A stretch of 44,209 nt of DNA from a virus. The stretch is taken from UHGV virus genome UHGV-0168748; one strand, 5' to 3'. Positions 3,589 to 44,209 of the stretch are shown here, one piece after another; positions within the stretch are counted from its first letter, which is position 1, and every line of letters starts with the position of its first letter. Both the position numbers and the translations under genes were made by a program. The notes beneath the pieces are model-generated. The model was not told the origin of the DNA, made no database searches, and was given only the letters and a program-made list of their open reading frames with translations.

Positions 3589-4623
3589 TTATACTGCGAC
3601 GGGGGCCGCAATATGTGGATGAGCTTGATAATCGACTAATTCGAAGTCTTCGTATTTGTATTCGAAGATAGAATCAGGTTTACGTTTGATAACCAGTTTA
3701 GGTAGCGGGTAGGGTTCGCGTGTAAGTTGAAGTTTTGCCTGCTCCAGATGGTTAGAATACAGATGAACGTCTACACCACTATAAACCAACTCGTCCGGAA
3801 CCATGTTCAGTTGTTGAGCAACGATGTGTGTTAACAACGCGTACGAAGCGACGTTAAATGGCGCGCCGAGTAGGTAATCGTTGCTCCGCATCATGTAAAA
3901 ACATGAAAGCTTACGGCGTGGAATGCCCTCACGATCTAAAGTTTCATGAAGCCGCTCTTCATCATCAATATCTTCGTGATTAATAAGCGGTGCGCTCGCA
4001 AATTTTTCCGGCTCGTTTACTTCGTACCAATCCAGTCGTTCAAGCAGTGTCATTTCTGTAGTGTAGAATTGGAAATAGTTGTGGCACGGGTTAAGTGCCA
4101 TATCGTCCAGGTCGGCTACGTTCCAGGCACTAACGATAATGCGTCGGGAGTCAGGGTCTTCACGAAGCTGTTGGATAACTTTACTGATCTGGTCATGTGC
4201 TTTTTCATAAACCAAATACGTCGTACCATCTTCCTTCATATTCCCGATATACTTGTAACCACGTTGTATTAGTTGTTGTGTACGCCCTACGTCATGGCAT
4301 TCCACAACCTTACAATCGCGCCATTCACGCCACTGTTTACCATAAACAGGTCCTAATTCCCCTTCCGCATTCGCCCACTCGTTCCAGATTCTTACTCCGT
4401 TCTCTTGCAGGTACTTCACGTTAGTGTCGCCGTTCAAGAACCACAGCAGTTCGTGGATAATACTTTTCAGGTGAACTTTTTTCGTAGTGACTAATGGGAA
4501 GCCTTCTCTCAGGTCAAAACGTAACTGACGACCAAAGACAGAAAGAGTTCCTACGCCTGTGCGGTCTTCCTTAACAACACCGTTATCCAGAATGTCTTGC
4601 ATTAACGCTAAATACTGTTTCAT
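3589..4623 (-). CDS. thyA: thymidylate synthase (ThyA family) with two insertions
   Basis: [36 protein letters not shown], catalytic [17 protein letters not shown]; C-terminal 50 aa near-identical in pattern to E. coli ThyA. Confidence 0.9.
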
Positions 4624-5957: not shown

Positions 5958-6016
5958 AACCGTTTCTCCGCTTAAATGTAGTTCGGGGAGACATAAGTCT
6001 ACCTCGCAATGTAAAT

Positions 6017-14611: not shown

Positions 14612-14709
14612 CGAGCTTTACCTTTATGGAAGAGTCTCGGTCATAAAGTTTGGGTGAACTGTAAAAAGACTTTACTATGTAACCCTGACTTATAATCCGA
14701 GGTTTTAGA

Positions 14710-28640: not shown

Positions 28641-28842
28641 TCATATTCTCCTCAGGCTCGAAATGTGTTTCGGGTGGCAACGTTCCTAAAGCCCCTTGGA
28701 TAGAAGCTGTCAGTGAAGGTTTACCAAAACAAACCTTACCGATTGTTCCTACGTTGGGATGTTGTAAGAACGCTTTGGCGCGTTCGTATTCTTTCCAACA
28801 AATACTCGTATCCAAACCACCCACTCCGTACGATTTTAACAT
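28597..28842 (-). CDS. hypothetical protein, possibly N-terminal part of a split gene
   Basis: 81-aa track ORF overlapping the start of 28272-28640 by 44 nt. Confidence 0.35.
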   Translation of the reverse strand: MLKSYGVGGLDTSICWKEYERAKAFLQHPNVGTIGKVCFGKPSLTASIQGALGTLPPETHFEPEENMNVHRESVSLRSTTG

Positions 28843-28908
28843 AAATAGCTCTCCTGACGTAAATTTCTCACACTCATAGTGAGGAACGCCAAGAGAGCTT
28901 TTATTATT

Positions 28909-32357: not shown

Positions 32358-32388
32358 ACCCACCTCCATAATCACGGAGTGTGGTGTA

Positions 32389-32435
32389 AAAAGAAAAAAA
32401 AATAAAAACGAATGGGAGAACCCGAAGGTTCTCCC
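32389..32435 (-). terminator. rho-independent terminator
   Basis: GGGAGAACC-CGAA-GGTTCTCCC followed on minus strand by a long U-run. Confidence 0.75.
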
Positions 32436-33583: not shown

Positions 33584-33660
33584 GATAATTCTCCTTTAGG
33601 TATAACAAGTCGTAAAAAGGACCCCGGACGAATCGGAACGTACCGGGGCCAAGACTACAC

Positions 33661-40820: not shown

Positions 40821-41786
40821 ATGGAGAAATCCAGTGTTGATTTTTTCTCAATTGGTATCGTCGCGGAAGACAAACCCCGTGGTACAGATCGGGTAAAAGT
40901 GATACCAATTGAAACCAACTTTGCTAACCCTACTGTGGTGCAATCTGTTTCTTCAGCAACTGAAAAGACGCATGAAACGTCTGGTGCAACAGATAACCTA
41001 ACCATTAAGACGGGTAACACGATAACAGCAAAGTGGTGGAAGTTTAACTCCAACCGAATTAATTCCCCTGACGTTAAACGAGAAGACTACGTTATCTTGT
41101 TACGTTTGGGGAAAACCGATATTTATTTTTGGATTGATTTGAATTTCGCTAACGTTAAGCGATTAGAAGATGCGGTTTATGCGTGGTCGGCTGACCCCGA
41201 AAACCAAATGGCGGATGACCTGTCCAATGCGTATGTGTTGAATGTCTCGACGATTGACAAACATATCACGCTAAGAACATGTATGGTGAATGGCGAGAAA
41301 GCGGCGTGGTTATTCCAGTTTGACAACGCAAACGGATCGTGGCAATGCGTTGACCATAAAGGGAACAAGTATTACATTAACTCGGTCGAAGATGATCTCG
41401 GGTTTGAGAATGCGATGCTATCAAAAGTGAACATCAACAAAGAAGATGCGTTCATTTATTCAAAGCGTTCTATTAACCTGGAAACAAAAACGATTAATGA
41501 GAAATGCGAAGTTCGCAATACAGAAGCATCGAAATCCGTTACCTTTAAAACACAAACCTGGTTAACGGAAGCGGGGAGTTCGACCACCTTTAAAACGCCG
41601 AACTTTAAACAAGAAGGGAATGAAGCACAATTCACCGGTAATCTTGAAGTGGCTAAAAACTTCAAGTACGGCGGTACTGGGGAAGGTGTGGGTATCTTTA
41701 CGGTTAAAGATGCGGTTATTGCGGGCATTACTTTCAGCGTACACATCCACGACGGTGTACACGGTCCTACTTCGGGTCCACGGTAA
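40821..41786 (+). CDS. hypothetical protein with His-rich C-terminal tip
   Basis: 321 aa; ends FSVHIHDGVHGPTSGPR; tail fibre or spike tip is speculation. Confidence 0.55.
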   Translation: MEKSSVDFFSIGIVAEDKPRGTDRVKVIPIETNFANPTVVQSVSSATEKTHETSGATDNLTIKTGNTITAKWWKFNSNRINSPDVKREDYVILLRLGKTDIYFWIDLNFANVKRLEDAVYAWSADPENQMADDLSNAYVLNVSTIDKHITLRTCMVNGEKAAWLFQFDNANGSWQCVDHKGNKYYINSVEDDLGFENAMLSKVNINKEDAFIYSKRSINLETKTINEKCEVRNTEASKSVTFKTQTWLTEAGSSTTFKTPNFKQEGNEAQFTGNLEVAKNFKYGGTGEGVGIFTVKDAVIAGITFSVHIHDGVHGPTSGPR

Positions 41787-41904
41787 TTCCCCTTTTTCTT
41801 ACGTTGCGTTTATATATTGTGACCTGACGTTGGTAAGCTTCTTATCAACACTTTTCTTAAACCCATCGTTTAGTTAAGCAGGCCACTTCTTTTCGCGCAC
41901 TCTT

Positions 41905-41938
41905 CTCCTCCCTTCGGGGAGGAGTTATCTTATGCTTT
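41905..41938 (+). terminator. rho-independent terminator
   Basis: CTCCTCCC-TTCG-GGGAGGAG followed by T-rich tract. Confidence 0.55.
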
Positions 41939-41995
41939 GGTTGTAACACACTACGGTCTTAGACCCGTATTCCTTTTCTGAAATGGAGAGCTGTT

Positions 41996-42205
41996 ATGTC
42001 TATTAAAGAGTTCTCTTCTGCTGAGCATATCCCAGAAGAGTTTAAGAAAATTGGTAACGTTAGTGCCTTTGGTGATACCGTTGACCACGTAACCGGTAAA
42101 CTGGCTGCTGAAGCCGAGAAAATCGGTGGTGACGCATTTAAAGTTATCGGTATCTCTGGTAACAACAAACTGCACGGCAACGCGATCGTCTACAAAAAAG
42201 ACTAA
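41996..42205 (+). CDS. DUF1471 (YhcN/BhsA/McbA-like) domain protein lacking signal peptide
   Basis: GDAFKVIGISGNNKLHGNAIVYKK matches the DUF1471 core; GGAGAG RBS; starts MSIKEF with no hydrophobic leader. Confidence 0.6.
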   Translation: MSIKEFSSAEHIPEEFKKIGNVSAFGDTVDHVTGKLAAEAEKIGGDAFKVIGISGNNKLHGNAIVYKKD

Positions 42206-42206
42206 G

Positions 42207-42267
42207 CGAAAAAAAAAACGTGCTACTCCTACCCTCTAAGAGGGTAGGAGGTTACTTTATTTTTTTC
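42207..42267. terminator. bidirectional rho-independent terminator
   Basis: A10, CTCCTACCCT-CTAAG-AGGGTAGGAG, T-run; between convergent genes. Confidence 0.75.
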
Positions 42268-43519
42268 GTGCACGAAAACGATGCATTTCTAAATACACTT
42301 TTTCCCAGGGGCCGAAGGGCCCGACTATCGCTTGCGCATCGTTAATCTTCTTCTGGTTATACCAGCGAGCTTCACGAAATACGTAGTTTTGACTGTCGAA
42401 CTCGGTGGTGTTAAATACCCACTCACCTTCTTCCCACGTAGGCCAATAACCTACCGTCTTTCCGAATCGGTTATTTAAATAGCCTAACGGTTTTTCAGAA
42501 TCAGGATCGTTAGGGTCTTTGAGATAACAACGTCCCCAAATCGCGTTATGCGATACGCCCACAATCTCTTCTTCTAAATACGGATTATCCACCGTAAAAA
42601 TAAACGAAGATTCGTGAAGTAAGAGCGCTTTTAATGTTTCTGGGTTGCGAATTCGTTGAACGTTAGCAGGTGAAGATAAATCCCCTACACCGATAGCATC
42701 CCAATCGTAGTAACGCCGTGTTTCTAACACCGTGCGCGCAAGATCGAAATTCGGTAAAGAAATCATAATCGCACGATCGGAGAAATAACCGTTCGCAGGC
42801 AGCCAACGTAACATCCCACCAATAACGAACCCTACGGTTTTACCGGTTATGGATTCGGGCAACGAAATCATTAACGTTGAATAGTAATCGCGCGTGGTGT
42901 CGAGTTTGTTTAAGGTAAGATTAGCAATCGGGTATGTTTTCACCGCACCGAGCGCATCAAAAACCATGCAACCGATATCTGGTGTACCTGCACGTCTAAC
43001 GATATTCCCAGCACCAGGTAATCGTACACCAACAGAATCAGATTGATGCGGCACCCATTGCCCGTTGATGTTGTATAGCACCCCGTTACGGTATTTGTCT
43101 TTCCATTTGTCTTCACAGACTATCACCACATCTGTCGCATCATCCAGACTGAAATCCTGACTGTAATGATAACCCGCAGGGCACAGGTAAGACTCAACGG
43201 GTACGTCTGCGTTAATCGATTGGTAATGCGCCCAGCTGAATTCCAGTTTCGGTAATCCTGCTTTTAAGGTAGGAATAACCACACCGGCTTTTTCATTCAA
43301 CCAGTCTTGTAAAGTATCGGTTCGGTTTTGTAATTCAGCAAGGTGATACTGGCTGACTAACGTATAGTCTTTACCAAGCGCACTCAGGCCGACCTCAAAG
43401 GTGTGGTAATCCGAACACAGTGTAGCTAAAGGTTGCGTGACATCGATGGCTCCCCAGGTACGGGACTCTCGAGAGAAGCCAAAAGCGCTGTCGGGCCGCA
43501 CTTGATAAGCAGTAGTCAC
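42257..43519 (-). CDS. hypothetical protein (420 aa)
   Basis: Track ORF; function not recognised. Confidence 0.6.
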   Translation of the reverse strand: MTTAYQVRPDSAFGFSRESRTWGAIDVTQPLATLCSDYHTFEVGLSALGKDYTLVSQYHLAELQNRTDTLQDWLNEKAGVVIPTLKAGLPKLEFSWAHYQSINADVPVESYLCPAGYHYSQDFSLDDATDVVIVCEDKWKDKYRNGVLYNINGQWVPHQSDSVGVRLPGAGNIVRRAGTPDIGCMVFDALGAVKTYPIANLTLNKLDTTRDYYSTLMISLPESITGKTVGFVIGGMLRWLPANGYFSDRAIMISLPNFDLARTVLETRRYYDWDAIGVGDLSSPANVQRIRNPETLKALLLHESSFIFTVDNPYLEEEIVGVSHNAIWGRCYLKDPNDPDSEKPLGYLNNRFGKTVGYWPTWEEGEWVFNTTEFDSQNYVFREARWYNQKKINDAQAIVGPFGPWEKVYLEMHRFRARKK

Positions 43520-43586: not shown

Positions 43587-44160
43587 ATGGCTGTCGTCCT
43601 AGACCCACACTTCAAAGAACCGGGGAATAAAATAACCGGTGAAGCGGTCGCCGTCATTGGTACGAAGTACCGAATGTTGGTACCTGCCCACGCCCCTTTT
43701 TTCACCACGTCCCTGGTGGTCAAGAGCGGCGGCAAAACACTGACCTTAGGCGACGATTACGTAATTACACACCCGTACGAGACAGGTATGTTGCGCACAG
43801 CCTATCTCATTCACGGGATGATTTGGATTGTTAACGACAAATACAAGTCGAATTTTACTGTGGATTATCATGCCGTTGGTTGTGGTGAAGCCACACAGCA
43901 GCAGATTAGCGCAGAGCGTGAGTTAAATAAAGATAAATACCCGTCTACGTGTCAATGGGACACCGTTATCGGGGACGTTTACTTTCCACCCGTTGACATT
44001 CAGTTCGATTGGGAAAACTGGAAAGGTGAACTGGAGTTAATGCAAGCCATCGCAGGCTTAGGCGACTCCTTAGGTAACGTTGTAAATCGGTTAGACCCGA
44101 TTGCACGTAACACGTTAGATATTGAGCATCGTGCTAACGGCACGGTTATCACGTCAGAAC
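43587..44160 (+). CDS. hypothetical protein, 3'-truncated by contig end
   Basis: ORF runs into the adapter without a stop; GGAGTAGATA-ATG RBS; the last residues of the track translation (VSYTHL...) are adapter-encoded. Confidence 0.55.
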
Positions 44161-44209
44161 CTGTCTCTTATACACATCTGACGCTGCCGACGACTCCTTA
44201 CGTGTAGAT
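44161..44209. other. Illumina Nextera i5 adapter, reverse complement; library artefact
   Basis: CTGTCTCTTATACACATCT-GACGCTGCCGACGA-CTCCTTAC-GTGTAGAT. Confidence 0.95.

Follow-up and report, generated by a model that had tools for sequence, protein, structure and literature searches.

The DUF1471 gene and its product

The window analysed here is a stretch of 44,209 nt from the UHGV virus genome UHGV-0168748. An ORF located at positions 41996..42205 (+), with an ATG start codon, encodes a protein of 69 amino acids with a molecular mass of 7.4 kDa and a pI of 6.3. This product had been attributed to the DUF1471 family in the initial annotation, and the attribution was confirmed by Pfam and PHROG searches and by an AlphaFold2 (AF2) model. 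The Pfam profile PF07338 (YdgH_BhsA-like) was matched with 38.2 bits and E 1.4e-9, above the gathering score (27), and residues 17-67 of the protein spanned positions 2-55 of the 55 in the profile. Its phage counterparts (see below) reached 43.5-68.1 bits with the same profile. The protein also matched PHROG 8068 (E 4.5e-32, residues 1-69 against profile positions 1-70), and the profile of the phage proteins matched the solved structure of YahO from Salmonella (2ma4/2noc, E 3e-7).

The AF2 model (pLDDT 86, pTM 0.67) contained four strands (residues 4-6, 16-26, 47-54 and 59-68) and one helix (residues 29-42). Its best matches in the PDB were solved DUF1471 domains, with TM scores of 0.62-0.74 and probabilities of 0.99-1.0, headed by YdgH (2m2j and 4evu), SrfN (2ma8/2jna) and YahO (2noc). 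These were followed by RcsF and an archaeal Se-binding protein, which are the structural neighbours of DUF1471 given by Eletsky et al. (PMC4092069). Two antisense ORFs (41951-42175 and 41959-42180, both on the minus strand) were discarded as by-products of the coding strand, since they lack homology evidence and purifying selection acts in the plus-strand frame.

Among the NCBIfam models the best-scoring one was the BhsA equivalog (NF047859), with 46.8 bits, below its cut-off of 90. The alignment paired residues 13-67 of the protein with model positions 30-85 of 85 and, therefore, the signal-peptide part of the model is absent. Counterparts of this gene are annotated in RefSeq as "DUF1471 domain-containing protein" and, in the Erwinia phages Stratton, Kwan and Wellington, as "putative multiple stress resistance protein BhsA". 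Since the equivalog cut-off is not reached and the signal peptide is missing, naming the phage genes "BhsA" or "multiple stress resistance protein" is, on these profile comparisons, unjustified and misleading.

The window belongs to an uncultivated SPN3US-like jumbo phage

When the 69-aa protein was compared with cultured phages by tblastn, 52 records were matched, all of them from SPN3US-like jumbo phages infecting Salmonella, Erwinia, Escherichia, Cronobacter or Proteus (Seoulvirus, Erskinevirus, Wellingtonvirus, Derbicusvirus, Asesino, Machina and others). The closest proteins were those of SPAsTU and STsAS, with 79.7% amino acid identity. Megablast of the region against cultured phages gave no DNA match, the phage being known only from metagenomes. 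An identical 69-aa protein was listed in 876 index blocks of public assemblies, and the four contigs shown with it (metagenome scaffolds of 223-228 kb plus one GenBank assembly) had the same gene order; relatives of 221-246 kb were found in IMG/VR. These comparisons identify the window as part of what is evidently a common, uncultivated member of the SPN3US-like jumbo phages (Chimalliviridae, nucleus-forming phages).

As judged from metagenome and IMG/VR contigs of 107-228 kb (L005-L008 and L020-L024), this phage is widespread in public metagenomes, and at the DNA level no cultured phage represents it. Its genome is about 225 kb with a GC content of about 44%, and the cultured relatives have a higher GC content (48-52% in the loci compared). 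Nextera/i5 adapter sequence is present at both ends of the window, at 1-51 as AGATCTACAC-index-TCGTCGGCAGCGTCAGATGTGTATAAGA(T)ACAG and at 44161-44209 as the reverse complement of this layout. The C-terminal ~15 residues of the ORF at 43587-44207 (…PVSYTHLTLPTTPYV) are therefore an artefact; the counterpart of this ORF in related contigs encodes 1440 aa.

Absence of a signal peptide

It had been proposed that the protein starts directly at the mature domain, without a signal peptide, and that this would fail if an upstream in-frame start with a signal peptide existed. An in-frame stop codon was found 11 codons 5' of the ATG at 41996, and no ATG, GTG or TTG codon lies between them, so that no such start is available. 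The N-terminus of the window protein is acidic and hydrophilic, and its peak 11-residue hydropathy within the first 30 amino acids was 0.75, versus 2.25-2.35 in the bacterial relatives. All the bacterial relatives (78-91 aa; P0012 reaches 103 aa because its gene call includes an upstream extension) carry a signal peptide, and Met1 of the window protein aligns at their A-x-A cleavage site. The phage counterparts measure 68-73 aa, and in 19/19 loci no upstream signal peptide is available. An N-terminal Sec signal, typical of the cellular DUF1471 members, is thus lacking in the window protein, and hence its synthesis and residence would be cytoplasmic. This indicates that the product of 41996..42205 is a genuine DUF1471 domain beginning at the mature N-terminus.

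Location in the tail module

The gene upstream (40821..41786, plus strand) encodes the 321-aa central tail spike protein, a homologue of phiKZ gp164 that matches PHROG 3216 ("baseplate assembly protein"). Amino acids 4-259 of this protein match phiKZ gp164 (PDB 6orj PHIKZ164, E 5e-21), and its last 53 residues (268-320) match the apex of Mu gp45 (3vtn/3vto/9ki1, E 3e-4 to 1e-3). The apex contains an HIH motif of the metal-site type, which is absent from phiKZ gp164. Downstream, the convergent gene at 42257..43519 (minus strand) encodes a 420-aa homologue of SPN3US gp171 (76.9% amino acid identity, PHROG 3337), an essential, tail-associated protein (PMC5105663). Farther on lie large genes whose SPN3US counterparts, gp168-170, are candidates for baseplate or fibre proteins.

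The order spike gene (+), DUF1471 gene (+), convergent 420-aa gp171-like gene and very large virion protein was fixed in 19/19 loci, which comprised SPAsTU, SPN3US, Stratton, Wellington, CR5 and the metagenomic loci. The flanking spike and tail genes make the DUF1471 gene part of the tail/baseplate module, where it immediately follows the spike gene as the positional counterpart of SPN3US gp172.

In a bacterial contig (L012 5001-6058; GCA_000784735.1) the signal-bearing DUF1471 gene P0012 lies two genes upstream of a PAAR-motif gene and adjoins a LuxI/LuxR pair. This 247-kb contig was considered as another jumbo phage and discarded, given its bacterial context (LuxI/LuxR, PAAR gene). The proximity of DUF1471 and PAAR in GCA_000784735.1 may recall the spike/PAAR neighbourhood of the phages only by chance.

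Expression signals around the gene

The claim that the gene has its own ribosome binding site held: a Shine-Dalgarno-like GGAGAG was read from the sequence at 41985..41990 (+), 5 nt before the ATG, and TGGAGA is shared without change by the window, SPAsTU, SPN3US and Stratton. Hairpins were likewise found on both sides of the gene, as claimed. The upstream one, 3' of the spike gene (41899..41925, +), is terminator-like and consists of an 8-bp GC-rich core with a UUCG loop and a weak T-tail. The 48-nt stretch containing it (41893-41940) folded with about -17.8 kcal/mol (z -3.1), and equivalents are present in SPAsTU and Stratton and absent from SPN3US. The downstream element (42208..42266, either strand) is of the intrinsic-terminator type, with an A-run, an 11-bp stem (42226-42250) and a T-run, and is kept in SPAsTU, SPN3US and Stratton. 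The 73-nt stretch 42203-42275 folded with -30.7 kcal/mol on one strand and -27.8 kcal/mol on the other (z about -5.8). With an A-run and a T-run around the stem and similar folding on both strands, this element can in principle work in both directions and is predicted to be able to terminate transcription of the DUF1471 gene as well as of the gp171-like gene that converges on it. When 41700-42350 was scanned with Rfam, the only matches were terminator-like and below threshold (PyrG leader, sroD), and no RNA element was found.

A TATG motif located between the upstream hairpin and the gene (41931..41934, +) is a low-confidence candidate for a phiKZ-type promoter or start site, TATG being the consensus of the phiKZ late promoters (PMC4666361). 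Relatives carry TTTAC-N16-18-TATG before the DUF1471 gene, and the window copy is without the TTTAC part. A scan for sigma-70-like promoters upstream of the gene found none. The arrangement TTTAC-N14-22-TATG was not enriched in the window (5 found versus 4.7 expected) and was absent upstream of the DUF1471 gene. Four intergenic TTTAC-N15-TATG sites were located on the main coding strand (5992-6015, 14642-14665, 28840-28863 and 32367-32390, minus strand). They resemble the layout of the phiKZ middle promoters (AAanTTACc about 24 nt before the TATG start); their total is not above chance, and their identical spacing and intergenic positions are suggestive.

Codon usage and composition

The fraction of optimal codons, computed with the classical E. 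coli optimal-codon set, was 0.75 in the DUF1471 gene, the highest among the 54 genes of the window (z 3.5), and only 0.24% of the 69-codon windows taken from the other genes reached this value. The codon usage is thus of the highly expressed type, as had been claimed. This feature was shared by all the counterparts, with fractions of 0.71-0.86 versus 0.44-0.70 in the neighbour genes, where the maximum of 0.70 corresponds to the second DUF1471 gene of Wellington. In the comparison with the rest of the contig that had been suggested as a check, the GC content (42.9%) and GC3 (44.9%) of the gene proved ordinary for the window (44.1% GC), and in the counterparts the GC content of the gene tracks that of each phage.

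Codon optimisation above the average was also observed in small minus-strand genes of 130-160 aa between positions 33600 and 36400. Two of them are paralogous, both matching PHROG 3429, and these small genes may encode abundant virion proteins.

Conservation and origin of the gene

The DUF1471 gene was present in every SPN3US-like genome recovered, always in the same position. When a bacterial BhsA was used as query against 50,697 phage records, only this phage clade was matched, besides two Salmonella genome contigs included in the collection, and the phage matches began at about residue 30 of the query (26-31), past the signal peptide. The bacterial relatives were mainly BhsA-like proteins from Serratia, Erwinia, Yersinia, Pantoea and Gibbsiella, with 35-50% identity over the domain, and a scan of one genome per species (185,579 bacterial and archaeal species) gave nothing above 43-46% identity. 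These searches for homologues brought no bacterial relative above about 50% identity. When a neighbour-joining tree was built from the domain, the signal-less phage proteins formed one clade in 44/60 bootstraps; a second, very divergent copy from Wellington fell outside it. This second copy, gp189 (186 aa; L010 3787-4347), is a tandem signal-less DUF1471 gene located directly after the 73-aa copy, and its domain precedes a C-terminal tail of ~120 residues that is acidic, of low complexity and probably disordered. The slot after the spike gene has thus expanded in Wellington.

The divergence of the gene mostly follows that of its neighbours, with identities to the window (DUF1471 protein versus neighbours) of 80 versus 79% in SPAsTU, 72 versus 81% in Stratton, 57 versus 56% in Wellington and 44 versus 45% in CR5. 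Compared with four metagenomic relatives (L005-L008, flank identity 88-97%), the gene showed 5, 19, 19 and 23 synonymous differences and 0 nonsynonymous ones, and the spike and gp171-like proteins differed at 4-6% of their residues in the three more distant genomes and at <1% in the closest. Against SPAsTU the dN/dS of the gene was about 0.07. As judged from these substitutions, very strong purifying selection acts on the DUF1471 protein.

SPAsTU and SPN3US are both Seoulvirus, with 84.5% identity between their gp171 proteins. In its DUF1471 protein, however, SPAsTU shares 90% identity with the Erskinevirus Stratton and 43% with SPN3US. In DNA, the SPAsTU gene plus its terminator (L001 about 3930-4285) is 80-93% identical to Stratton and 53-59% identical to SPN3US, whereas its flanks are at least as similar to those of SPN3US, and a sliding-window comparison confined the switch to the gene plus terminator. 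This confined switch of identity indicates that the cassette has been exchanged among phage lineages, and in this one respect the moron-like behaviour of the gene is real.

The proposal of a host-derived moron was consequently sustained in part. A deep origin in the host lineage is plausible, because the family is otherwise enterobacterial, being described as exclusive to Enterobacteriaceae/Enterobacterales (PMC4092069, PMC11705850), and these phages infect Enterobacterales. A recent or sporadic gain, however, does not agree with a gene carried by 52/52 records and 19/19 loci, with the GC content of the phage and in a single clade. With regard to the features expected of a moron, there are hairpins on both sides, with a TATG motif as the only promoter-like element and no sigma-70-like promoter; presence is not patchy, since all the recovered clade members have the gene, and neither GC nor GC3 deviates from the values of the phage. 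Nor is the gene "unexpected" in a phage, as it had been called: it is already annotated in RefSeq/GenBank and forms PHROG 8068. Taken together, sequence comparisons indicate a single old capture followed by long residence in the phage lineage under strong constraint, probably with high expression.

Possible roles of the protein

Evidence at the protein level comes from SPN3US gp172, which mass spectrometry identified in CsCl-purified virions from 4 unique peptides and 6 spectra, at 81% coverage and 100% identification probability (Ali et al. 2017, PMC5694885). It was the smallest virion protein (7 kDa), of low abundance and not flagged as a head protein, and its mass-normalised spectral count was 0.86, versus 0.93 for the 12-copy portal (PMC5694885). 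It was undetected in the 47(am1) mutant particles, and its status was considered by the authors to need further work (PMC5694885). This virion evidence comes from one study of one phage, whose gp172 is only 44% identical to the window protein. Literature searches on phage DUF1471/BhsA, the SPN3US transcriptome and the SPN3US baseplate structure returned only this report on gp172. In bacteria, the DUF1471 proteins are described as periplasmic and fall into about 12 paralogous subfamilies, for which no molecular mechanism is known (PMC4092069, PMC11705850). SrfN binds sulfated polysaccharides, and other members affect biofilm and cell-surface properties (PMC4092069); YdgH deprived of its secretion signal fails to complement (PMC11705850).

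A virion component is favoured by the location within the tail module and by the mass spectrometry, and a non-structural product by the codon bias and the separate transcription unit. The interpretation that we tentatively put forward, with a probability a little short of even, is that of a conserved DUF1471 protein of the SPN3US clade that is made in the cytoplasm and becomes a minor tail-associated component of the virion, near the spike or baseplate. According to this interpretation, the domain would stem from a single, ancient capture of a BhsA-like gene from an enterobacterial host, and the Sec signal would have been lost owing to the use of the protein in the cytoplasm, the site of virion assembly. 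The protein would be made late from its own short unit and incorporated in low copy into the tail near the central spike or baseplate, as the mass spectrometry of SPN3US virions suggests. Contraction of the tail upon the following infection would bring the protein to the outer membrane or periplasm and there, speculatively, the domain would act on an envelope component in the same compartment as the cellular DUF1471 proteins. A more specific version, in which the protein rides the central spike complex, takes the genomic slot and possibly also the structural position that the PAAR tip has in phiKZ, and is injected into the periplasm at contraction, is suggested by analogy and seems rather unlikely.

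A strong codon bias and a terminator-bounded unit suggest an abundant product, which fits poorly with a few copies per virion, and the trace found in virions is possibly carry-over of an abundant soluble protein. The protein could then be non-structural, highly expressed and cytoplasmic, either a binder, modulator or decoy acting on a host factor, as had been proposed, or a helper in spike/baseplate assembly; we regard this as doubtful but by no means improbable. The codon optimisation, the highest of the 54 genes and kept in all the counterparts, the terminator-bounded unit and the lack of a signal peptide all agree with it, as do the low abundance and inconsistent detection of gp172 in SPN3US particles and the tandem paralogue of Wellington, whose acidic disordered tail of ~120 aa would be atypical for a structural part. 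However, it has to be reconciled with the conserved place beside the spike gene in the tail module and with the detection of gp172 in CsCl-purified virions at 100% probability and 81% coverage, a published result with which the idea of a cytoplasmic decoy competes. In addition, no cytoplasmic partner is known for any DUF1471 protein, and the failure of YdgH without its secretion signal to complement indicates that the known activities of the family are periplasmic (PMC11705850).

Less likely than these virion and cytoplasmic readings are two others. An abundant soluble protein freed at lysis might act from outside on neighbour cells or the biofilm matrix by a BhsA/SrfN-like binding to surfaces or polysaccharides. 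The high codon optimisation agrees with such a protein, lysis would make a signal peptide unnecessary, and effects on biofilm and cell surface, as well as the binding of sulfated polysaccharides by SrfN, are described for bacterial members (PMC4092069); but a protein added from outside would not reach the periplasm, and both the fixed position next to the spike gene and the detection in virions would be left unexplained, so that this role is improbable. As for a moron recently acquired from the current host, the flanking terminators, the own ribosome binding site, the exchange of the cassette between phage lineages and the otherwise enterobacterial distribution of the domain can be adduced, and yet GC and GC3 equal those of the phage, all the clade members have the gene at one position, the phage copies are monophyletic, and the best bacterial matches are 35-50% identical, with none closer among 185,579 species. 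Such an origin is very improbable.

DUF1471 is a large family restricted to Enterobacterales, with phenotypes in stress, biofilm and virulence and no known molecular activity. A signal-less copy that is kept unchanged at the protein level, codon-optimised and located beside a cell-puncturing spike constitutes a natural experiment on the binding target of the domain. If the preferred reading is right and a tail component is delivered to the envelope, it would point to the target of the family and represent a new kind of spike-associated cargo in contractile phages; injection into the periplasm would mean that a phage, bypassing Sec export, brings a copy of a host envelope-stress domain to the compartment where it natively resides, manipulating the envelope at entry. 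If it is only an abundant cytoplasmic protein, it would be one more conserved phage gene of unknown function. The annotation in RefSeq/GenBank, PHROG 8068 and the presence of the SPN3US member in virions are already known, and to these the window adds a member from an uncultivated phage. As far as our searches show, the loss of the signal in all the phage copies, the extreme purifying selection on the protein, the codon optimisation shared by the counterparts, the exchange of the cassette and the location in the slot of the phiKZ PAAR gene have apparently not been discussed in the literature; these additions are incremental.

Comparison with known systems

In phiKZ, gp163.1 (88 aa) is encoded, like the 69-aa protein studied here, by a small gene that directly follows the spike gene, here gp164, and has its orientation. 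The phiKZ protein is the monomeric PAAR spike tip in the 2026 cryo-EM atlas (PMC13250141). Its PAAR motif (PF05488) was recognised with 28.7 bits, whereas the window protein gave no PF05488 match in the Pfam search. The product gp163.1, whose T4 analogue is gp5.4, is a low-copy virion protein unrelated to DUF1471 in sequence and fold, and the gap between the spike gene and the small gene is 9 nt in phiKZ versus about 210 nt, including a hairpin, in the window. A tblastn search with gp163.1 matched 78 phage records, none of them SPN3US-like; lacking a homologue of gp163.1, the clade has the DUF1471 gene as its small gene after the spike gene. Unlike phiKZ, which uses the separate PAAR tip gp163.1, the spike of the window phage has its own Mu gp45-like apex. 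Spike apices of the Mu/P2 type need no cap in those phages. The possibility that DUF1471 replaces PAAR as a tip cap is weakened by this HxH apex, and the position shared with the phiKZ PAAR gene may be coincidental.

The bacterial BhsA/YcfR-type proteins (YhcN/BhsA/McbA family, Enterobacterales) have the domain and fold in common with the window protein. Unlike bacterial BhsA, the window protein lacks a Sec signal, is encoded in a phage tail module and belongs to a clade of phage proteins.

The nearest known system is that of SPN3US gp172 (SPN3US_0172, YP_009153466.1), which, like the window protein, is a DUF1471 protein of 69 aa without a signal peptide. Within this family, presence in the virion has been reported for SPN3US gp172 only. 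Both genes occupy the slot between the spike gene (gp173 in SPN3US) and gp171, and both have a bidirectional terminator downstream and the same type of codon bias. The two proteins are 44% identical, whereas their neighbours are 66-77% identical; unlike gp172, the window protein is of the allele type found in SPAsTU, Stratton and phiEaH2, with which it shares 72-80% identity.
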